Below are positions 980 through 40,384 of a stretch of 64,000 bases of DNA, piece by piece. This DNA is from a phage. The notes under the pieces were generated by a model. The model saw only the letters and a list, made by a program, of their open reading frames with translations. It was not told the origin of the DNA and ran no database searches. The stretch lies in sequence record PV467749.1. The stretch is one strand, 5' to 3'. Position 1 is the stretch's first letter, and the number at the start of each line of letters is the position of its first letter. The translations under genes were made by a program, and so were the position numbers.

Positions 980-1400
980 GTATTACTCTTTTACTTTGGC
1001 GGTACTCATCCTTTGCTTCTCTCACTGACATGATACGAACCAGATTGGCACTACCACAATAGTACTGAACCTGACTACGACCAATGTCAACATGATTATC
1101 AGGAACTTCATATACTGATACAGCAAACCCTGCACGATGTAATTTACCCAAGTCCATAGTAAAGAACTTAAACAAATCATTCAAACTCTGACAGCCAAAT
1201 GCCCAGCCACGTTTGATTGAATAGATTCCATCTTCAGTTGGTTCTGGTTGGAATTGCGAAGGCGTGGTCATGCACAAACGGTCAAATCCATTTTTAGTAC
1301 TGTATCGTGAAGAGTACCGTGCGAACGGACCTACTGTTTTTGCTGGATCTAAGTTAGGTTCAATATAACTGAATTTAAGTTCAAAACGATATACGTACAT
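960..1400 (-). CDS. hypothetical protein
   Basis: 146-aa ORF. Confidence 0.5.
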   Translation of the reverse strand: MYVYRFELKFSYIEPNLDPAKTVGPFARYSSRYSTKNGFDRLCMTTPSQFQPEPTEDGIYSIKRGWAFGCQSLNDLFKFFTMDLGKLHRAGFAVSVYEVPDNHVDIGRSQVQYYCGSANLVRIMSVREAKDEYRQSKRVIHEAVYG

Positions 1401-1433
1401 AATTAAAATCCCCAGTATTTGATGAAATAATTA

Positions 1434-1462
1434 TAACAAAAAAGGCTGACCGAAGTCAACCT
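1434..1462 (-). terminator. rho-independent terminator (hairpin GGTTGAC-TTCG-GTCAGCC + T-run on minus strand)
   Basis: Perfect 7-bp stem with UUCG-type tetraloop followed by T-run; identical hairpin recurs at 9568..9585. Confidence 0.6.
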
Positions 1463-1677
1463 TTATTTTGAAGTTCTTGAACTAATTGTCGTACTTCTTT
1501 GATGTTATGACACTGCTTTACAGTGAAGTAATCATACTTACGACCATAGGTTCTTGGGTCATCACCTTCCATATACTGCTGCACATCAAAGATTTGTAAG
1601 TAGGGATGCTGCATAACACGAATGTTATCACATTGGTAAATCAACATATGTTTAGTCCTCATATTTACACAAGCCAC
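1456..1677 (-). CDS. hypothetical protein
   Basis: 73-aa ORF; stop codon lies inside terminator stem. Confidence 0.4.
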   Translation of the reverse strand: MACVNMRTKHMLIYQCDNIRVMQHPYLQIFDVQQYMEGDDPRTYGRKYDYFTVKQCHNIKEVRQLVQELQNKG

Positions 1678-2002
1678 CGAATGTTGCCTGTTTTGCTGCC
1701 TTACGCATCATCACAAGTTTAACATACTGTTCACCATTACTTTCTTCATATACATCAACTTGAAGAAATGCAAGCATATTGGGATCAGTATCATTCGAGT
1801 ACTGCGTAAAACTAATGTCACCTACAGTATGTTCTTTAACAAAATTATACACTTCACCATCGATATAAACGATAGTATGGTCATCGCTATCACCTTGGTA
1901 AATGTGTTTAATATCACCTTCAGTACAGACTAGTCCAGGTAATGGTTCTGCATAAGACATACCACATATAATCATACAAACAAAAAACAAAATTACTTTC
2001 AT
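1652..2002 (-). CDS. secreted protein (signal peptide)
   Basis: Hydrophobic N-terminus MKVILFFVCMIICGMSYA then polar domain. Confidence 0.5.
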   Translation of the reverse strand: MKVILFFVCMIICGMSYAEPLPGLVCTEGDIKHIYQGDSDDHTIVYIDGEVYNFVKEHTVGDISFTQYSNDTDPNMLAFLQVDVYEESNGEQYVKLVMMRKAAKQATFGGLCKYED

Positions 2003-2382
2003 GATTTGTTTCCTTTGGATAAAATGGATTTCTTCACTTTGTACTGCTTGTAGTTATTATACCAAACATCGATTACATAAATCAAGTACCAAAGTGATGG
2101 ATATAATGATAGACCAATAAAAACTGAAAAAATACTTGTATTAATAAAACCAATACAGTGCAGTGTAAATGCAACGATTAGAATACCAATCGTAATCATA
2201 CTAGCTGAATATGGTACACTATCAGATGCGAACCATGAATCAACCTTACTAATTAAAGTATACTTCCCAGTACTAACAGCATAAACAATTGCTACTATAC
2301 CAAATAATGCCATTGAAATAGTTATTACTGAGTTAATAAGAATCGGAGTAATTAATACATAAAGCATTACATCGTTTATCAT
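1999..2382 (-). CDS. integral membrane protein
   Basis: 127 aa, multiple hydrophobic segments. Confidence 0.5.
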   Translation of the reverse strand: MINDVMLYVLITPILINSVITISMALFGIVAIVYAVSTGKYTLISKVDSWFASDSVPYSASMITIGILIVAFTLHCIGFINTSIFSVFIGLSLYPSLWYLIYVIDVWYNNYKQYKVKKSILSKGNKS

Positions 2383-2392
2383 TTGTTATACC

Positions 2393-2788
2393 TTAAAGTT
2401 CACAATGAATATTCAATTTATCAATATCCTGATCTCGTTTGTTCGACGAATCTTGATAAATGACTATGTAAATATCCCCATCCTTTGTCTTGGGGTCCAC
2501 TATCAATATTACATTTGCTATTATACCAGCATCTGATTTATATGTCGATACCTTTTTATTCCCAATCAAACTCTCGGCCCTGAAACGGTAAACCTCATTA
2601 TCTACGACAATATTGTTTCCATTTTGTGGGTCATTAGAAAGTACATGCCATGTTCCATCGTTTCCCATACAATCAAGGTAAGCAGGTACGGCTGTACTGA
2701 ACCTTGAATAAAGCATGAATACTACAAACACCATTATCATTCTTATATATTTTTTCATTATAACCTCTAACGAGCAATACTTCTGCAC
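2393..2788 (-). CDS. secreted or membrane-anchored protein
   Basis: N-terminal hydrophobic segment MIMVFVVFMLY. Confidence 0.5.
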   Translation of the reverse strand: MQKYCSLEVIMKKYIRMIMVFVVFMLYSRFSTAVPAYLDCMGNDGTWHVLSNDPQNGNNIVVDNEVYRFRAESLIGNKKVSTYKSDAGIIANVILIVDPKTKDGDIYIVIYQDSSNKRDQDIDKLNIHCEL

Positions 2789-2836
2789 ATATTATTTGTA
2801 CAGAAGTATTTAATACTATTAGAGACTTTTTGAACG

Positions 2837-3163
2837 TTACTTCTTACTAGTTAGTTTATCTTTCAAGATATCAAACCAAATGGAAACTTTACCAGCAAAC
2901 AATGCATTAGTAAACCACACAATACCAACAATATTCTCAACTAAATTCATAATTGAAACAAATGGTCCAATTGGTAATACAAAACTTACTAACCATGACA
3001 GTACTGAAATAAGTACTACAACGAAGAAGATTCGTGCAATGGGTGAGTCTAACATAAACAACTCACGAAACTCATCACGCTCGGTTTCGTCTTTAATGAA
3101 GAATTCGAAAACCATAACCCATAAAAGAATTAGAGCAGGAATTGAAATTAGAACTGATAACAT
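2837..3163 (-). CDS. membrane protein
   Basis: 108 aa with several hydrophobic helices. Confidence 0.45.
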   Translation of the reverse strand: MLSVLISIPALILLWVMVFEFFIKDETERDEFRELFMLDSPIARIFFVVVLISVLSWLVSFVLPIGPFVSIMNLVENIVGIVWFTNALFAGKVSIWFDILKDKLTSKK

Positions 3164-3221
3164 GTTTTATATCCTCAAGTTTAAGTATTAAGTTTCAGAC
3201 TACAAGAACCATTATACAGTA

Positions 3222-3464
3222 CTACAAACGTTTGTCAACAGGTTTTTCTTCAATAAGCATAAGATAACTGAAGACGAATAGTAATACAGATGCCATATCA
3301 ATAACCGTAAAGCTCACGGGAATGATAATAGACACTAGAACGAGTGCCACGTTTAGCAAGAATACAGTAGTGATATCCACCAGCTTTCGTTTAGTGGCTA
3401 CTGCTACTAGTGTAGGGTAGAACATAAACAATAATGCAACTACAAAACTCAATACTAGATACAT
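3222..3464 (-). CDS. small membrane protein
   Basis: 80 aa, two hydrophobic helices. Confidence 0.45.
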   Translation of the reverse strand: MYLVLSFVVALLFMFYPTLVAVATKRKLVDITTVFLLNVALVLVSIIIPVSFTVIDMASVLLFVFSYLMLIEEKPVDKRL

Positions 3465-4117
3465 TTCTTTTTCACCTTAAGAAAATTATAACATAAAACA
3501 ACCTCAACATCTGGCTCATCATACAAGTACTCAAAGCGTTCTTTACTACGCTTAGTACCGATGTACTCACCATTCTTATGCCAACGCCACCCACCACTCT
3601 CTGGTTGGTCAGACTTCAGTACTGGATGATAGCACATGACAATTTCTTCTGGACCTTCAATAAGGTTCTTGTACTTCGTCAAAATCTGTTCAAGCGTATC
3701 TGCTACACCATAAGACGGGTGCATAAGATAAGACTCAGGGCGTGGACGACCACTTGGTAGAATGTCATCAGTACTATTAAAGATAGCACGGAAGTCTTCT
3801 GACGTGTATAAACTTCCATCTTCATGGATCATTGGATACTCATCTACTACATCATAATCAGTGAAGTGTTCAATCGCATGTCCTGGTCTGTAACCTGCGA
3901 GGATACCTGTATGTTTCGTCTGTACAATAGTCATAACAGATGTACTATTGTTTACATTAGGATCATGAATTTCAGCCCAAAAAGGATGATGAGGATCAAA
4001 TTTAGCATTAACTAAAGTACAATCACCAATGTAGTCGAAATTAGTTTCTTTAAAGTTCAAAGAAACACCACGCAATGCCCAATCAGGAGAAGTGATGAAA
4101 TTAAGATTAACTAACAT
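3455..4117 (-). CDS. hypothetical protein
   Basis: 220-aa ORF. Confidence 0.55.
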   Translation of the reverse strand: MLVNLNFITSPDWALRGVSLNFKETNFDYIGDCTLVNAKFDPHHPFWAEIHDPNVNNSTSVMTIVQTKHTGILAGYRPGHAIEHFTDYDVVDEYPMIHEDGSLYTSEDFRAIFNSTDDILPSGRPRPESYLMHPSYGVADTLEQILTKYKNLIEGPEEIVMCYHPVLKSDQPESGGWRWHKNGEYIGTKRSKERFEYLYDEPDVEVVLCYNFLKVKKKCI

Positions 4118-4150
4118 AGTATCCTCAGTTGCAGTTGTTTTTTGATGTAG

Positions 4151-4474
4151 TTATTGTATCAAAGACGTGTCAATTTGTACAACATTTATTGTAACTATTT
4201 CGTACATATATTCAATTGCATTGAACTCTGCATACCACTCTACAATCTCACAAGCAGCATCAACTTGGGTTTTCGCATTAACACGTCTGGCATAGGTACT
4301 GCTCATTTTGAATCTACCATATTCATAGACATTGTAGACACCATGACACCACCACATCTTAGTCATTAATGCTAGGCCATACAGTGAATTGTAAGTCTTG
4401 GTATTCAAATTTACCAATATCATTCTTCTTACGGAATGATTCTTCAACCTGAATTTCTGCGTCGTACTGACCAT
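4151..4474 (-). CDS. hypothetical protein
   Basis: 107-aa ORF; overlaps upstream ORF 4359..4577, so true start may be internal Met near 4366. Confidence 0.4.
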   Translation of the reverse strand: MVSTTQKFRLKNHSVRRMILVNLNTKTYNSLYGLALMTKMWWCHGVYNVYEYGRFKMSSTYARRVNAKTQVDAACEIVEWYAEFNAIEYMYEIVTINVVQIDTSLIQ

Positions 4475-4577
4475 CGGCCTTTACTACGTACTTAAAATAT
4501 TCTACATGTGAAAAACGATACCCTTCTCCGTCTTGCTTGGATACTTGTACTGACCCTTCAACTAGATATAAATTCAT
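4359..4577 (-). CDS. hypothetical protein
   Basis: 72-aa ORF. Confidence 0.35.
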   Translation of the reverse strand: MNLYLVEGSVQVSKQDGEGYRFSHVEYFKYVVKADGQYDAEIQVEESFRKKNDIGKFEYQDLQFTVWPSIND

Positions 4578-4580
4578 TTG

Positions 4581-4802
4581 TCATTCTCCATCATATTCAG
4601 TGAGTATTACACTATGTACGGTTTCAATATAGCGTTGTGTTTTTGATGTGTTGTACTTAGTTACTTCATCAAACAATTTAAATAGTGCATGTGTTGGACT
4701 TAATGCACGAACAAATACATCAATCTTCTGTACTTCTTTCTTATAACCACGTACATTATTAAACTCAGATACATGCTCATACACAATGTAGTAACGATTC
4801 AT
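4581..4802 (-). CDS. hypothetical protein
   Basis: 73-aa ORF. Confidence 0.4.
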   Translation of the reverse strand: MNRYYIVYEHVSEFNNVRGYKKEVQKIDVFVRALSPTHALFKLFDEVTKYNTSKTQRYIETVHSVILTEYDGE

Positions 4803-5314
4803 ATATTAAGTAGTTCCATAAATTCATCGATCAAGGAAGTTCTAATGCACATAACAAATTCAAAATCAACATCGATAGTATCGAGTAGTTTGAACAACTT
4901 TGGTACATTTGGATCATTCAACTGGAAGTTATGAATCAAGCTCTGTTGAAACACACTTTCTTCAGTACTGTAATCAATAACAAAATATTCAGCTACACCT
5001 GGAGGTGAATAAACATCATATAATATCTGACGTTTATTGTGTGTTTCTGAACCAGGACAATATATAAGTTCTATTTCATATGAACCTGCCGAGGATCTAT
5101 CATAAAACACAATTTCAGTACTGATTATTTCACTACCATCACTTCGTTCATGAAAACATACATCGGCATATCGTTTGCCATTTGGCTTCAAAATCTCATG
5201 AGTTGTTTTACCATAACATTTATCAGTTTCAATGTGAATTTTGTCTTGATATTCAGAACGTCTTACATCATTTCCACGATTAAACAATAAGATCAACAAC
5301 TCATTAATATCCAT
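4799..5314 (-). CDS. FQxS-motif paralog family protein
   Basis: 171 aa; C-terminal STEESVFQQSLIHN matches family motif [DE][DE]x2FQxSx[VI]. Confidence 0.55.
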   Translation of the reverse strand: MDINELLILLFNRGNDVRRSEYQDKIHIETDKCYGKTTHEILKPNGKRYADVCFHERSDGSEIISTEIVFYDRSSAGSYEIELIYCPGSETHNKRQILYDVYSPPGVAEYFVIDYSTEESVFQQSLIHNFQLNDPNVPKLFKLLDTIDVDFEFVMCIRTSLIDEFMELLNI

Positions 5315-5571
5315 TATTTCGCCTCGATAACCTTAAGGTTAACAAAATCACCTTTTACTTTCATGCATTTGAATTCAGTGCGAGTTTCATCCCCACTATC
5401 GCGAGGCCAATGAGTAGCAGAGTAGCACTGGTCTGGTGTTTTATATACACCTTCACCAATAGTACGAGTGATTTCACCATTGGTGAGAACTACTGCGAGA
5501 TATAAAGTAAACATGATATTCGCCTTAGAATAATTTATTAATAATAATAGCACCCAACGCAAGAACTGCAA
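5314..5571 (-). CDS. small secreted protein
   Basis: 85 aa, hydrophobic N-terminus. Confidence 0.45.
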   Translation of the reverse strand: MQFLRWVLLLLINYSKANIMFTLYLAVVLTNGEITRTIGEGVYKTPDQCYSATHWPRDSGDETRTEFKCMKVKGDFVNLKVIEAK

Positions 5572-35061: not shown

Positions 35062-35441
35062 AGTTTTTTCCAGTCCAATGAATCGAAATCGATTTGTTCA
35101 GGGTTATCAACAGCGACAACTCGTGCATTATGAAGAGTTTCAAAGTAGCCGTTCCACGGTGTTCGTAATGGAACTGTCACATCACCAACTTTAACCAAGA
35201 ATGAATATGCTGGTGATATTGGGTCAAACCACTCTTTTTGTTTAGCATTTTCGACGATGGTTTCGTGTTCTTTTGTATAGCAATTATCTTGCTTCATATA
35301 AAACACCCAATGCTCTTTTAGGCACTGTAAAGCAGCAACTGCTTCCTCTTTAGAAGACCATTGAATATCAATTGTATTAAGAACGTCATAACAATTTTCA
35401 GTATCACCTGTAGTGTAATGTACTTCAATGCAGTATTTCAT
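35058..35441 (-). CDS. hypothetical protein
   Basis: 127-aa ORF. Confidence 0.5.
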   Translation of the reverse strand: MKYCIEVHYTTGDTENCYDVLNTIDIQWSSKEEAVAALQCLKEHWVFYMKQDNCYTKEHETIVENAKQKEWFDPISPAYSFLVKVGDVTVPLRTPWNGYFETLHNARVVAVDNPEQIDFDSLDWKKL

Positions 35442-35896
35442 TATTCATCACCTTTTAGTAATTTACAAATTTCAATCATATGATAATAACATGTATTCCA
35501 AAATTGCCCATTAGTACTACCAACATCATGCACAGTACTTTGTTGGAAAACATATTCATCATTGAACAACTTTTTAATGTCATCAATGTAAAATTCTGGT
35601 TTTGAATCATTATTGTATTCAATACTCGTTTCACCATCTGGATCAAGTGAAATTGATGATATGTCGTGAATTCCTATCGGATTTGTTGGACAAATTCTCA
35701 ACGTAAGAGGATAGAAGTCTGGATCGGTTTCATATGTATATCCGATTATGTAATTACCATCTCCAGTGATTGAGTTATATTTAAATTTAGGTTCAAATAC
35801 ATTATGGACATTATAACCTAGTTTATTCATCTCGTTAAGATGTAATAATATTTTATGTAAAGTCCCTAAGACATGAATCAAATTATCAATTTTCAT
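35441..35896 (-). CDS. FQxS-motif paralog family protein
   Basis: C-terminal NDEYVFQQSTVHD. Confidence 0.5.
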   Translation of the reverse strand: MKIDNLIHVLGTLHKILLHLNEMNKLGYNVHNVFEPKFKYNSITGDGNYIIGYTYETDPDFYPLTLRICPTNPIGIHDISSISLDPDGETSIEYNNDSKPEFYIDDIKKLFNDEYVFQQSTVHDVGSTNGQFWNTCYYHMIEICKLLKGDE

Positions 35897-36435
35897 TTAC
35901 GATCCTTTGAAAAGTTCAGTTTAAAAGATTTACCAAATTCCATTGTAGCTTTACCCAGATTGTTAATATTTTCTTTCAACATTTCTTGCATTTTTCTCAC
36001 ACTTTCATTCCAGGCTTCCTCTTCTTTACGGAGGATTGGTCGCAATCGTTCCTGAATATCGTTAAAACGTGTATTGAGTTCAACCAATGATTCATATGTG
36101 AAATCTTTCATGTCGATGATAGTACTTCGTTGAAAGAATTCTTCTTCGGATAAATTACTCAAAATGATTTTATCACTACCAATAGATAATGTCAATTCAT
36201 CATCTTGATTTTTTTTAATTACAATACGTACAGGTGATTTTATAGTAATGTGAACATCATGATTATTAAAAGTTTCAGTTTTGTTTGACGTTCTGAATTG
36301 TAGTCTTCCGGTTAGTGCGTGTACTGGCATTGGGTTCTTTTTACCAGTAATAACATCTTCCCACGAATCAAGGATATTATTAATAATTTTAACATAAGGA
36401 ACTGTCATATATGCACCTATGAAAAATCCACGCAT
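35893..36435 (-). CDS. FQxS-motif paralog family protein
   Basis: C-terminal SEEEFFQRSTIID. Confidence 0.5.
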   Translation of the reverse strand: MRGFFIGAYMTVPYVKIINNILDSWEDVITGKKNPMPVHALTGRLQFRTSNKTETFNNHDVHITIKSPVRIVIKKNQDDELTLSIGSDKIILSNLSEEEFFQRSTIIDMKDFTYESLVELNTRFNDIQERLRPILRKEEEAWNESVRKMQEMLKENINNLGKATMEFGKSFKLNFSKDRK

Positions 36436-36450
36436 AGCGTGGATCTGTAA

Positions 36451-36981
36451 TTAATCGAGTATAGTAACTTCAATCAAACGAATTTCGATGAATTCGTTTT
36501 CAGTTTCCCATGATGAACCTAATTTCTTATTAAGTTCAGTTTTAACATCACTTTTAAATTTTCCCATAGTATTAGGAATAATTTGTTTGGTTAGTTTGTC
36601 ATAACCACAATAAAACATAGGTTTCTCCCTTCGAGATATTAGCTCAACAAAATCCTTTGGATATGCAGGTATATTATGCATCACTTCATGAATGCACTCA
36701 GTACTTGAATCTTGTACTTTGTACATTACATTAAGTTTACCTTTGAAAGTTCTAATCATATCAACAATAATACCTTTACCAGATTTAAGTAAAGTTCCAT
36801 TCTTTGTATGAGAACAATAGAATACCTCATCACCAATATTAGGATAGTACAAATTAAATTCTAATTCTTCCTTTGATGACTGACGTTGAAATTTCATTAC
36901 ACGTTCAGTATAGGTGGGGTAGTTCTTCATGTTCAAAAGAATATCTCTCTTAGTAAGTGTGATATAACTGGCATAGTCCAT
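36451..36981 (-). CDS. hypothetical protein
   Basis: 176-aa ORF directly downstream of methyltransferase; no Vsr-type motifs seen. Confidence 0.5.
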   Translation of the reverse strand: MDYASYITLTKRDILLNMKNYPTYTERVMKFQRQSSKEELEFNLYYPNIGDEVFYCSHTKNGTLLKSGKGIIVDMIRTFKGKLNVMYKVQDSSTECIHEVMHNIPAYPKDFVELISRREKPMFYCGYDKLTKQIIPNTMGKFKSDVKTELNKKLGSSWETENEFIEIRLIEVTILD

Positions 36982-38822
36982 CCATTCCCAAGCATTTTGT
37001 ATGCTTGTGTCTTACTAGACACTTTAAAGAAATCTACAGGAATACCCTGTAATTTACAACATTCTACTACACTTAAGTGTCTATAGTCAATATTTCTTTT
37101 ACCATTCTCCAATAGATATTGACGATTAATCGTTGGGTCACGAAACACCAACTGTCGTCTTGATTTATTAAAGTACTGGTTACAATCACCACCCTTAAAA
37201 TAGTTAGCATCTATACAGTACGAAGCGGTTCTGTCAGTGTACCAACCATCTTCAATGATATCTTGAAGTTTAGGGGCATTTGATAATGCAGGTGGTATAA
37301 AAAGCTTATCAGTACTGCACCAGTAGTATCTCTGCCTGAAGTGAGGCGTATAATGCTGGGAATTTATCAGTACTGGTGTCATCTCAAGAACACTATTAAT
37401 GTATTGCTTGAAATCTTCTTTCATCTTAACATTCTCAAAGAGAACTTTCAAGTTAGGATTTAAACTTTTTATGTGTTGGTAGATATCAACCATCGTGTGA
37501 AACAACATTCCACGTGGGTCATTTATACCACCCTGTTTACCAGCAACTGACCATGCTTGACAATTGTGAACAACTATATTATTTGCAGTGTACGTGTTAT
37601 CAACAGCAACTTCAAAATTATATACAGTTTTCCATTCTCCAGTATGAGTGCTAGTTTTTACACCTTTAACCCACGAATAATTTTTGTCATAAAAAGCTTC
37701 CTCTTTTTTCGGTTGGTCTTTTTTATATGACAAAACATAATAAGGTTTTTGGTTAACAACTCGATTTTCAATAACTTTGGTATTCTCTGGTTGAGTATAG
37801 CTTATATTGGAATGCCTTCCATATACGTTCATTATCAATTGTTGAATACCCAATACACAGTTTATTGATGTTGTAGTGAATTTATAACATCCACTATCAA
37901 TATGTCCATCAGCGTCAAAGTAACCATCAAGAAATGCTTTTTGGTTTTTTATGCATTCCGTGAATAGTTCTGGGTGTACTTGTTTGTTAGAAGCACCCTT
38001 TCCCATTTGTTCACAAAATTCAACCAGATCTTTTGAACATATATAAAATTTATATGAAGTTCTTTCTTTAACATAATTATATTTCATATTCATACCATCA
38101 AAACATGAAACTAATTCATTAAATTCGTCATGTGCACAACAGATGAAAACTCTATATTGGTAACTATTGGTTCTATTGTTACGTTTTACTTTATATGTCC
38201 ATCCATCACCCATAAAGCGACCCATAAAATACCAGAATTTTTCATCTTTCGTTGATTTGTTAGATTCAACTGATTTAACATTACACAGAAAATGGTCATA
38301 TGTCAAATCATGTGCCTCTACCCATTCTGGTTCAGAAAAATGACGTTCATATTGTCTAATGTTGTTATTCCACATAGACGTCATTTTTCTTGAATAAAAG
38401 GGATGATTATCGGTACATTCAATTGGAAGGTGACCTTGACCTGTAATAATACGAGTGGGAGCATTTTTAACACCAGTACTCAAAACTGGATGATATTTAC
38501 CAGTATGTGTCAGTACCATGTCACCAACTTGAATGTCTTTTATATCTTTATGACCTTTGTCTGTCATAATCATGGTTCCTGCTGGGAAGCATGGAAATCC
38601 ACCCATTAATAAATCTATTTTATCCCACTCAATATCCCATTCTCTCCATTTAGTTACATCACCCAATTGGGTGATATCAGGAAAGTTAGCTTGAGATTCA
38701 GCTATTGCGTACTTGTCAATTTCGGATGAATAATATTTTTCAACAGGGATACCAGCATCTTTTAATGCCATGTATCCAACACTCATCCCATTAAAAAGAG
38801 ATAGTACTCTGATAGGTTTCAT
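36933..38822 (-). CDS. DNA (cytosine-5)-methyltransferase, intein-containing
   Basis: Motif I LFNGMSVG; motif IV split as GGFP / CQAWSVAGK by a 343-aa insertion; motif VI LFENV downstream. Confidence 0.75.
   Translation of the reverse strand: MKPIRVLSLFNGMSVGYMALKDAGIPVEKYYSSEIDKYAIAESQANFPDITQLGDVTKWREWDIEWDKIDLLMGGFPCFPAGTMIMTDKGHKDIKDIQVGDMVLTHTGKYHPVLSTGVKNAPTRIITGQGHLPIECTDNHPFYSRKMTSMWNNNIRQYERHFSEPEWVEAHDLTYDHFLCNVKSVESNKSTKDEKFWYFMGRFMGDGWTYKVKRNNRTNSYQYRVFICCAHDEFNELVSCFDGMNMKYNYVKERTSYKFYICSKDLVEFCEQMGKGASNKQVHPELFTECIKNQKAFLDGYFDADGHIDSGCYKFTTTSINCVLGIQQLIMNVYGRHSNISYTQPENTKVIENRVVNQKPYYVLSYKKDQPKKEEAFYDKNYSWVKGVKTSTHTGEWKTVYNFEVAVDNTYTANNIVVHNCQAWSVAGKQGGINDPRGMLFHTMVDIYQHIKSLNPNLKVLFENVKMKEDFKQYINSVLEMTPVLINSQHYTPHFRQRYYWCSTDKLFIPPALSNAPKLQDIIEDGWYTDRTASYCIDANYFKGGDCNQYFNKSRRQLVFRDPTINRQYLLENGKRNIDYRHLSVVECCKLQGIPVDFFKVSSKTQAYKMLGNGWTMPVISHLLREIFF
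37563..38591 (-). mobile_element. intein with LAGLIDADG homing-endonuclease domain
   Basis: Starts CFPAGTMIMTDKG (block A), TDNHPF (block B), two LAGLIDADG-like motifs (FMGRFMGDGW, LDGYFDADGH), ends VVHN followed by Cys. Confidence 0.7.
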
Positions 38823-38874
38823 ATAAAATCCTTTTTATATTGTTAAGGTACTATAATACATTATAGCATCTTAT

Positions 38875-39165
38875 TTAGAAATCTTCCAGACTTTTTTCAT
38901 CGCACCATCGAGAAGTACAGATGATCGCAGATGCAAGAATTGAAGCACTGGCTCGACCACCACCAAGTAAGTACTGGCTAATGACACCAATCATATTGAA
39001 GACTTTATCATACTCAGCAAGGAGTTCAAAATCCTTCTTCCAACATTGATATTCTTCTTCAGTAACATTAAACTCATCACCAAGTTCATTTAAAATCTTT
39101 TTAAGTACTGCACGATGTTCACTCATCTGATTCCCCATATCGTTCGTCGTAAAAATCATCATCAC
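38875..39165 (-). CDS. hypothetical protein
   Basis: 96-aa ORF. Confidence 0.4.
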   Translation of the reverse strand: MMMIFTTNDMGNQMSEHRAVLKKILNELGDEFNVTEEEYQCWKKDFELLAEYDKVFNMIGVISQYLLGGGRASASILASAIICTSRWCDEKSLEDF

Positions 39166-39204
39166 GGTCCAATGGTTCTTTTGGTTTTTCTGCCATATAT
39201 TTCC

Positions 39205-39465
39205 TCACATGGTAAATGTATTATCACCATCCATATCTTCATCTGTAGCTTCAGCTAAGGTCTTAATCGTTAGCAATTCACGCTTCACGTACAACATGAA
39301 GACCTTTTCATAATTACCGAACATCATCTCAGGTGACATGTAATTCTCCGTTACAATGACGATTGGACGGCCCTGTGACAGCATACGAAACATAGTACGG
39401 TATTTGTCAAAGGTGCGAAATTCATCCATGTTCATCATGTGGCGTTTACGAACTACTTTAGTCAT
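39205..39465 (-). CDS. hypothetical protein
   Basis: 86-aa ORF. Confidence 0.4.
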   Translation of the reverse strand: MTKVVRKRHMMNMDEFRTFDKYRTMFRMLSQGRPIVIVTENYMSPEMMFGNYEKVFMLYVKRELLTIKTLAEATDEDMDGDNTFTM

Positions 39466-39479
39466 TTTGATACCTTTAG

Positions 39480-39935
39480 TTAATTGAACTCGATTTCTGG
39501 ATAATGATTATAGAACATCTCACGTACTGCGTCAAGCTGTTCTTTAAATTTCTCAATGTCATCAAGAGTTAGTACAGTGTTACTAACTGTACTCAACTGA
39601 AAAAGTGCCTCTTCAGTACTGTTTTCTGATAAATCAAATGTACATGATGAATCATCTGTTATAATATTATCACATATTTCAAATGTGTCAATATGAACAT
39701 CATTGAGTAGATCACCACTATAATCATTATATATGAACACAAAAATGTATGATGGTTTTTTTATCTCAGTTTCTGACTCATAGGCTACTAAATCATATGT
39801 TACGTAACATTTAAAGTCAGGTGAATCGTATTCCATAGATACAATTCCTATATCACGATATTGATTCGCTTCACTGATTAAATCCGGTATAGGTGTAATA
39901 CTAAGTAAATGGAAAAACTGTCCTGGATTTAGCAT
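39480..39935 (-). CDS. FQxS-motif paralog family protein
   Basis: C-terminal STEEALFQLSTVSN. Confidence 0.55.
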   Translation of the reverse strand: MLNPGQFFHLLSITPIPDLISEANQYRDIGIVSMEYDSPDFKCYVTYDLVAYESETEIKKPSYIFVFIYNDYSGDLLNDVHIDTFEICDNIITDDSSCTFDLSENSTEEALFQLSTVSNTVLTLDDIEKFKEQLDAVREMFYNHYPEIEFN

Positions 39936-40384
39936 TTGATTACCTTCGGGTTTTGCTCTGTGATATCAAACATAGATAGAACGAAATCATTTAGCTTTTC
40001 AACACAATTGATTATAGTGCTTAAATCAGAATAACTAACTGTTAAATTTTTAACAAGAGATTCCTGAAAGTATCCTTCTTCAGTTGAGCAATAACTCACA
40101 TTTGAGATAGTCTCATAATGTATATCTTTGCTTGTTTTACATGTTATAATTTCTATTATATCCGATGTTGTGTTATATAATAATATAAATGTTGTTGTTC
40201 GTGAATTCTTATTGTAAAATGCGAGTTCAGTGCTGTCATATGTTTTCTCAATAAGAACATTGTACTCTTCCGAAAACGATGTGGAAATTCTAATTATCTC
40301 TTCTGGATCAGGAACATAAGAGCCATCAAATTTACAAGACAATGCAATTTCAAAATGATTTTTTATTTCATCAATTTTCATCAT
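39929..40384 (-). CDS. FQxS-motif paralog family protein
   Basis: C-terminal STEEGYFQESLVKN. Confidence 0.55.
   Translation of the reverse strand: MMKIDEIKNHFEIALSCKFDGSYVPDPEEIIRISTSFSEEYNVLIEKTYDSTELAFYNKNSRTTTFILLYNTTSDIIEIITCKTSKDIHYETISNVSYCSTEEGYFQESLVKNLTVSYSDLSTIINCVEKLNDFVLSMFDITEQNPKVIKC

Follow-up and report, generated by a model that had tools for sequence, protein, structure and literature searches.

The window analysed here is the whole stretch of 64,000 nucleotides taken from phage sequence record PV467749.1, and the locus under study is a gene on its minus strand that, once an in-frame insert is removed, is by its sequence a C5 cytosine DNA methyltransferase (PF00145, Dcm/DNMT type). 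The sequence and predicted fold of the insert are those of a canonical class 1 intein that encloses a two-motif LAGLIDADG endonuclease, and the insert lies between Pro77 and the catalytic cysteine of the 'PC' dipeptide of motif IV. An initial annotation, made from the nucleotide sequence, had placed a 343-residue insert in this 629-residue open reading frame (ORF), and the limits that it gave proved exact to the base; the strand, which it did not state, is minus.

The methyltransferase gene and its insert

The reading frame of the methyltransferase was free of stops and frameshifts across its 1890 bp, and the motifs of C5 methyltransferases were all found, namely motif I (LFNGMSVG), motif IV (GGFP/CQ, where here and below the slash marks a junction with the insert), motif VI (LFENV) and motif X (LGNGWTMPV). 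The extein sequence abutting the insert reads ...IDLLMGGFP on the N-terminal side and CQAWSVAGKQGG...LFENV on the C-terminal side. A Pfam search of the precursor returned DNA_methylase (PF00145) with an E-value of 6e-32, the match being broken into stretches, and NCBIfam returned dcm (TIGR00675) with 99.3 bits, slightly below the cut-off of 100.65, as well as a weak match to an intein C-terminal region. When residues 78-420 were deleted in silico, the resulting 286-residue protein matched PF00145 with an E-value of 4e-38 and the match was continuous through motif IV. The initial annotation had recognized motif I, GGFP, CQAWSVAGK and LFENV and had proposed that removal of the insert would restore GGFPCQ, as was indeed the case.

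The spliced sequence aligned end to end with the catalytic domain of DNMT3B (E 1.4e-24), with GGFPCQ opposite GGSPCN, and with the N-terminal half only of M.HhaI (query residues 4-151, E 2.6e-18). The DNMT3B alignment and the invariance of Cys421 upheld the earlier suggestion that the extein +1 nucleophile would be the catalytic cysteine of the methyltransferase itself. The closest solved structures to the spliced methyltransferase were the mammalian DNMT3A and DNMT3B catalytic domains (E ~1e-24, full length), with the bacterial enzymes M.HhaI and M.HaeIII ranking behind them (E ~1e-18).

The insert consists of 343 sense codons, 1029 bp, running from CFPAGTMIMTDKG to NNIVVHN. Pfam assigned it to Hint_2 (PF13403, 35.1 bits, cut-off 28.4) and LAGLIDADG_3 (PF14528, 29.2 bits, cut-off 22.5). 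In an alignment with ten homologs, C78, T137, H140, N420 and C421 were invariant, as was K280, and the C-terminal junction reads VVH419-N420/C421. Of the PDB sequences, the one that best matched the N-terminal splicing region was the cyanophage-like mini-intein gp41-1 (6QAZ, E 1.8e-4, residues 5-67), which resembles that region but is naturally split, resides in a helicase and has no endonuclease. Thus, the sequence and fold features of a class 1 intein were all found: Cys1, the TxxH motif, HN followed by cysteine, homologs that are empty to the exact codon, and the Hint fold. Blocks A and B and the two LAGLIDADG motifs, each with its acidic residue intact (D206 and D305), were present as first reported.

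Other readings of the insert were considered and ruled out. The plus strand of the same interval contains many stops. The continuous ORF, the Hint blocks at both ends and the codon-exact deletion in other alleles exclude both a free-standing endonuclease gene and a group I intron that encodes an endonuclease in frame. The same observations, together with the fold matches, exclude the insertion of a domain other than an intein. A search with an intein-family profile, with filters off, of all 264 six-frame ORFs of at least 60 residues found no other intein in the window.

An AlphaFold2 model of the precursor was built from a shallow alignment of 11 sequences. The confidence over the intein, expressed as the block-mean predicted local distance difference test (pLDDT), was mostly 80-93 and locally as low as ~65. 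In the model, a beta-rich N-terminal half is followed by two alpha-beta-beta-alpha-beta-beta-alpha units and a beta-rich C-terminal half. The top matches in a Foldseek search of the PDB were intein endonucleases, TliVMA (6e-17), PI-SceI (4e-16), PI-PfuI (3e-11) and PI-PkoII (6e-9), and the search also matched I-DmoI with an E-value of ~3e-7 and a template modelling score (normalised to the target) of 0.58-0.68. As judged from sequence and modelled fold, the nested domain is a monomeric two-motif LAGLIDADG endonuclease.

These best structural matches, PI-SceI (from yeast VMA1), TliVMA, PI-PfuI and PI-PkoII, have the same layout as the window intein, in which a monomeric two-motif LAGLIDADG domain separates the two halves of the Hint domain, and the same catalytic set of Cys1, TxxH, HN and Cys+1. 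They differ from it in sequence, with only 12-18% identity, and in their hosts, which are V-ATPase or ribonucleotide reductase rather than a C5 methyltransferase. At 343 residues, the window intein is more compact than PI-SceI (454 residues), and a separate DNA-recognition region was not identified in it. The positions of all features are collected in Table 1.

Table 1. Positions in the window of the methyltransferase gene, the predicted intein and the flanking tracts that diverge from phage EC.P1. Junction counts refer to the family search described below.
Feature	Position	Strand	Evidence or remark
Precursor gene, C5 cytosine DNA methyltransferase with intein, 629 residues and stop	36933..38822	-	ORF list; PF00145 (E 6e-32), Hint_2 and LAGLIDADG_3
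N-extein, residues 1-77, motif I (LFNGMSVG) to GGFP (first half of motif IV)	38592..38822	-	aligned with intein-less alleles
Predicted class 1 intein with nested homing endonuclease, residues 78-420 (343 residues)	37563..38591	-	translation; missing exactly from G17, 121Q, PBECO4 and EC.P1; Foldseek TliVMA 6e-17, PI-SceI 4e-16
Intein block A (CFPAGTMIMTDKG), Cys1 as putative first nucleophile	38553..38591	-	Cys78 invariant in alignment; residue 1 Cys in 130/131 clean junctions
Intein block B (IECTDNHPFY), TxxH motif, T137 and H140	38394..38423	-	both invariant in homolog alignment
Predicted LAGLIDADG homing endonuclease domain, residues ~191-370	37713..38252	-	PF14528; two alpha-beta-beta-alpha-beta-beta-alpha halves, pLDDT 83-93; I-DmoI, PI-SceI and PI-PfuI fold matches; dN/dS 0.07-0.09
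LAGLIDADG motif 1 (FMGRFMGDG), acidic residue D206	38202..38228	-	kept by each of the six intein-bearing Asteriusvirus alleles; D or E in homologs retaining the domain
LAGLIDADG motif 2 (LDGYFDADG), acidic residue D305	37905..37931	-	D305 and G306 nearly invariant in homolog alignment; motif kept by each of the six intein-bearing Asteriusvirus alleles
Intein blocks F and G (VYNFEVAVDNTYTANNIVVHN), penultimate His419, terminal Asn420	37563..37625	-	N420 invariant; His in 126/131 and Asn in 131/131 junctions
Cys421 codon, putative extein +1 nucleophile and catalytic Cys of motif IV (PCQ)	37560..37562	-	GGFPCQ aligned on DNMT3B GGSPCN; +1 Cys in 131/131 junctions
C-extein, residues 421-629 and stop: CQAWSVAGK, motif VI (LFENV), QRYYW, target-recognition region, motif X (GNGWTMPV)	36933..37562	-	
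Tract diverging from EC.P1, C-extein side	37380..37562	-	41 mismatches at 37380-37554 vs 1 at 36400-37379
Tract diverging from EC.P1, N-extein side	38592..38802	-	32 mismatches at 38595-38802 vs 1 at 38803-39400

Asteriusvirus alleles and the divergent patch

The gene matched 37 phage records, all from jumbo phages of E. coli or Salmonella, and every fetched record with a taxonomy line belonged to Asteriusvirus (121Q, PBECO4, G17 and others). The initial annotation had recommended a search for intein-less alleles in related phages, and these were readily found. About 32 of the 37 records gave a two-piece match of exactly 861 bp (1890-1029), which lacks precisely the insert, and the annotated genes of G17, 121Q, PBECO4 and EC.P1 encode 286-residue methyltransferases that read GGFP/CQAWS, the gap corresponding to residues 78-420. 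Since many of the related phages have a natural allele of exactly 861 bp that is free of the intein, the boundaries of the insert are established far beyond chance.

An intein was present at the methyltransferase site in 5 of the 37 related records. TH47, JNE01 and A4 carry the same intein, with 88%, 88% and 77% amino acid identity, respectively, to that of the window. In UE-S1 and ph0011, the site is occupied by a second intein lineage, whose splicing blocks are nearly identical to those of the window but whose endonuclease core is only 56% identical in nucleotide sequence (37713..38252), a pattern that suggests either a replaced endonuclease domain or an old divergence with conversion of the ends. 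The endonuclease core of these two phages also has a 7-residue deletion after LAGLIDADG motif 1. None of the five Asteriusvirus records has the intein annotated, and the genes are labelled 'methyltransferase' or 'hypothetical protein'. The alleles with and without the intein could be told apart by their extein sequences. All six intein-bearing alleles share a protein signature of I or V followed by NDPRGMLFHTMVDIY...LKV..., and the five most similar also have KQ...SVLEM, while the four intein-less alleles compared have LNDIRGQLFLVMV followed by E or D and then IF...F...KE...SILGI.

Alignment of positions 35433-40322 of the window to the intein-less phage EC.P1 revealed 92 mismatches over ~4.9 kb, 73 of which were located within ~210 bp on either side of the intein (Table 1). 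The remaining ~3.47 kb of backbone had 19 mismatches (~0.55%). The distal part of the C-extein (residues 484-629) was 100% identical to EC.P1, and the proximal 189 nucleotides had 78% identity to each of the intein-less alleles and 84-89% identity to those with the intein. As read from these alignments, the window genome is an EC.P1-like backbone with a 1.42-kb patch comprising the intein and ~200 bp of flank on each side. A patch of this kind is the expected footprint of endonuclease double-strand-break repair with co-conversion of the flanks, so that the divergent tracts fit gene conversion by homing, and the intein seems to have been copied in recently. A comparison with the intein-bearing phage TH47 gave a backbone that was 97-100% identical and mismatches that were dense from 37401 to 38616, indicating that near-identical phages carry intein cassettes diverged by ~15%.

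The ratio of nonsynonymous to synonymous substitution (dN/dS) was calculated by the Nei-Gojobori method for the window, TH47, JNE01 and A4, several comparisons being saturated at synonymous sites so that the values are rough. The ratio was 0.05-0.21 for the N- and C-terminal splicing parts, 0.07-0.09 for the endonuclease core and mostly 0.01-0.10 for the exteins of intein-bearing alleles, with a value of up to 0.19 in one pair. Low values in the exteins of intein-bearing alleles indicate that the host enzyme is still needed, and low values in the intein, the endonuclease and the exteins alike speak against both a dead insertion and decay of the endonuclease. These substitution patterns suggest that the two activities of the intein are being maintained, as is the host enzyme.

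Distribution of the motif IV site

A word-indexed protein search recovered 11 relatives, 9 of which proved to be C5 methyltransferases, or parts of them, interrupted by the intein at the same P/C junction, one of them from Paenibacillus cisolokensis. This search understated the family and was superseded by an exhaustive HMMER search of 1.84 billion cluster representatives (50% identity) that yielded 13,910 matches at E <=0.001, ordinary intein-less methyltransferases included. The intein was present in 146 of the best 150 of the 13,910 representatives, and since these 150 end at an E-value of ~1e-69, the intein-bearing total is larger than 146. The junctions and lengths that follow refer to the best 150. 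Clean junctions were obtained for 131 representatives, of which 130 read ...P/C. Residue 1 of the intein was Cys in 130 of the 131, the penultimate residue was His in 126, and the terminal Asn and the +1 Cys were present in all 131; the +2 residue was Gln in 104 and Thr in 23. The inteins with clean junctions ranged from 311 to 380 residues in length, and about 8 further representatives had mini or degenerate inteins of 136-255 residues at the same site, in agreement with the prediction of a homing cycle. Members of these clusters were named only 'DNA-cytosine methyltransferase' or 'hypothetical protein'. One homolog, the metagenomic protein P0002 (551 residues), is a close relative of the Asteriusvirus methyltransferase, with 55% identity over the whole protein, the exteins being much closer than the intein. 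Its intein occupies the same site, lacks LAGLIDADG motif 1 together with a large part of the first half of the endonuclease, and looks like a decaying copy.

Homologous inteins were found by tblastn in 82 records of deposited phage genomes. Several occupy the same motif IV site: Lactobacillus phage Nyseid (FGFP/C...HN/CQDISVAGK), Propionibacterium phage B22 (GGSP/C...HN/CQDLSMAG), Erwinia phage Y3 (GSPP/C...HN/CKGFSTAG), Pseudomonas phage Lana (junction D/C), Mannheimia phage vB_MhS_587AP2 (C-terminal junction HN/CQS) and the P1-like Escherichia phage RCS47. In the last, the intein (2501-3523) lies at the motif IV cysteine of the C5 domain of the bifunctional Dmt (locus 2270-5557) and the sequence reads GGTP/C...HN/CQAFSIAG. 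The inteins of these six phages are full-length homologs of the window intein (23-32% identity) that, as in the window, immediately precede the catalytic cysteine, which is followed by Q, K or T. Their exteins and hosts are distant from the window phage, and no intein is annotated in any of them. The copy in 587AP2 is disrupted: the methyltransferase (locus 1264-3584) looks broken, with a stop less than ~20 codons past HN/CQS, and the annotation of the record comprises a 'hypothetical protein' and, as a separate feature, a fragment named 'cytosine-specific DNA methyltransferase', with a gene for an HNH endonuclease downstream. RCS47 is a P1-like plasmid prophage, and two other P1-type records, OP279344.1 and MH160767.1, also match the intein.

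Homologous inteins were likewise found at other sites, in the N6/N4 methylases of cluster-F mycobacteriophages, in the NrdD of Lactococcus 949-like phages and in the thymidylate synthase of an Aeromonas phage. The intein of the cluster-F methylase is a full-length homolog of the window intein (28% identity, E 1e-36). In RefSeq, cluster-F methylase genes (NC_031262.1, Brocalys gp61; NC_011287.1, Pacc40 gp60) are named 'anaerobic ribonucleoside reductase large subunit', whereas the original GenBank entries for the same genes read 'DNA methylase'. MT553345.1 (LastJedi gp60) is another of the cluster-F matches concerned, and some GenBank records say 'DNA helicase'. The wrong names were probably carried over by way of the common intein, a homolog of the NrdD inteins of the Lactococcus phages.

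Inteins in the N6/N4 methylases of mycobacteriophages (DNMT-1/2) have been known since 2016 (Kelley et al., PMC5050341), and an actinophage methylase intein was analysed subsequently (Genes 2023, PMC9957025). A 2025 preprint (bioRxiv 10.1101/2025.01.02.630785) lists both N-6/N-4 (PF01555) and C-5 (IPR001525) methylases among the actinophage proteins invaded by inteins, and its searchable text does not discuss the insertion site in the C-5 methylases. The inteins described in these three reports resemble that of the window in that an orphan phage methylase is paired with a LAGLIDADG intein of patchy distribution. They differ in that the hosts described in detail are N6/N4 methylases (PF01555) with another insertion site, for example VQMHV/C...KN/CPLQFD in phage Clifton. 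In papers on Rak2-like and jumbo phages, inteins are mentioned only in terminase or ribonucleotide reductase genes. A full-text literature search found no paper describing the motif IV site; InBase, REBASE and InterPro lay outside that search, and we do not claim that the site is undescribed. The novelty implied by the initial annotation did not hold, since a homologous intein occurs in at least 130 of the best 150 cluster representatives and in several deposited phage genomes, and C-5 methylases had already been listed as hosts. A phage methylase intein with a LAGLIDADG endonuclease is an established kind of element, and that of the window is one more unannotated member of a very widespread same-site allele.

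Proposed pathway, alternatives and implications

The steps proposed for the window intein follow the established class 1 pathway (summarised in PMC8616854). The 629-residue precursor would be translated with an interrupted catalytic loop in motif IV, Pro77 and the catalytic cysteine being separated by the intein. Cys78, residue 1 of the intein, would undergo an N-S acyl shift, and the resulting thioester would be attacked by Cys421 at the +1 position. Cyclisation of Asn420, assisted by His419, and an S-N shift would then leave a seamless 286-residue methyltransferase reading GGFPCQ and a free 343-residue endonuclease of ~40 kDa. Cys421 would thus have two successive roles as a nucleophile, in splicing and afterwards in the methyltransferase reaction. 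Where intein-bearing and intein-less phages infect together, the endonuclease, once released, would cleave the intein-less allele at GGFP/CQAWS, near the junction of GGATTCCCA and TGTCAAGC, and repair from the intein-bearing copy would transfer the intein along with flanking sequence of a few hundred bp. Because the insert parts the proline and the cysteine of the catalytic loop, the precursor is very probably inactive as a methyltransferase, and it can be soundly inferred that methylation would depend on splicing.

Several observations lead us to conclude, with a probability of roughly 0.88, that the locus harbours a genuine class 1 intein with a nested LAGLIDADG endonuclease, probably still mobile, in the C5 methyltransferase gene of an Asteriusvirus (121Q/PBECO4-like) jumbo coliphage: 1) the splicing residues and the predicted fold, 2) the codon-exact intein-less alleles, 3) the low dN/dS and 4) the patch that surrounds the insertion site. 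We infer that splicing occurs, that the endonuclease cuts and that the window genome gained the intein, as opposed to a loss by EC.P1. Several points weigh against this conclusion. Confidence in the model is low for residues 422-438, the catalytic loop, and for the target-recognition region, so that the model is uninformative on the folding of the precursor. The direction of the patch is not polarisable by sequence, and the EC.P1 ancestor could have lost the intein through recombination with an intein-less allele. Most sequenced Asteriusvirus genomes are free of the intein though the target is nearly identical, which an efficient endonuclease might have changed. Finally, a donor allele more than 90% identical to the window intein was not found in the phage collection searched.

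The sparse distribution also speaks for an unlikely alternative, that the intein splices with an inactive endonuclease and is maintained, in place of homing, by vertical inheritance and by the ordinary recombination of homologous sequences during co-infection. Only 5 of the 37 related records have the intein even though the intein-less targets are nearly identical at the junction, mosaicism is common in phages without any endonuclease, and mini and degenerate inteins exist at the same site, P0002 having no LAGLIDADG motif 1. However, the window intein retains the acidic residue of each LAGLIDADG motif as well as the conserved Lys280, the domain has a dN/dS as low as that of the splicing domain where a dead domain should drift, and the recombination patch is tightly centred on the insertion site, extending ~200 bp to either side.

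The possibility that the intein has been co-opted as a post-translational switch, in which redox state or metal (a Cys1-Cys+1 disulfide or zinc) gates splicing and so the timing of methylation, is distinctly improbable. The Cys1/Cys+1 geometry was universal at the junctions of the same-site family, as represented by the best 150 matches, and conditional, cysteine-dependent splicing has been documented elsewhere, for example in mycobacterial DnaB in response to oxidative stress and zinc (PMC6195587, PMC7360933). Nevertheless, the sporadic distribution, the mostly intein-less relatives, the homing-like footprint and the degenerating copies are hallmarks of a selfish element, and the sequence itself is silent on regulation. 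A degenerate, non-splicing Hint/LAGLIDADG insertion that has made the methyltransferase effectively a pseudogene is highly improbable: phage methyltransferases are accessory and often lost, and the 587AP2 homolog is broken just past the intein, but all class 1 splicing residues are present and conserved in the window, the 1890 bp are free of stops and frameshifts, and purifying selection acts strongly on the exteins of alleles with the intein, which is unexpected if the product is never made.

A genuine, probably mobile intein in the Asteriusvirus methyltransferase thus remains the preferred explanation, and a broader proposal can be built on it. The P/C intein of motif IV may represent a very large, essentially undescribed allele, spread over hundreds of clusters from phages of Gram-negatives, Gram-positives and actinobacteria, P1-like prophages and bacterial genomes, in which one cysteine would serve first splicing and then catalysis and which, if splicing were conditional on redox state or zinc, would act as an on-switch for phage methylation. 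As a whole this proposal is unlikely. If splicing did prove conditional, an intein on-switch for phage DNA methylation would bear on the evasion of host restriction.

The intein lies unannotated within genes labelled 'methyltransferase' or 'hypothetical protein' in five records of Asteriusvirus and in six or more from other phages, whose annotation could be corrected, and intein similarity seems to have caused wrong product names elsewhere. The natural allele pairs, near-identical phages with and without the intein or with different cassettes, could serve for measurements of intein homing in lytic jumbo phages. The locus is also an uncommon case in which the predicted +1 nucleophile is itself a catalytic residue, so that enzyme activity would be an all-or-none read-out of splicing, with possible use in splicing assays and in testing whether inteins gate DNA modification. 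The understanding of intein function is unchanged by the window intein.

Downstream of the methyltransferase gene, a 176-residue ORF (36451..36981, minus strand) overlaps its 3' end by 49 nucleotides in another frame, and this overlap is also annotated in G17, PBECO4 and EC.P1.

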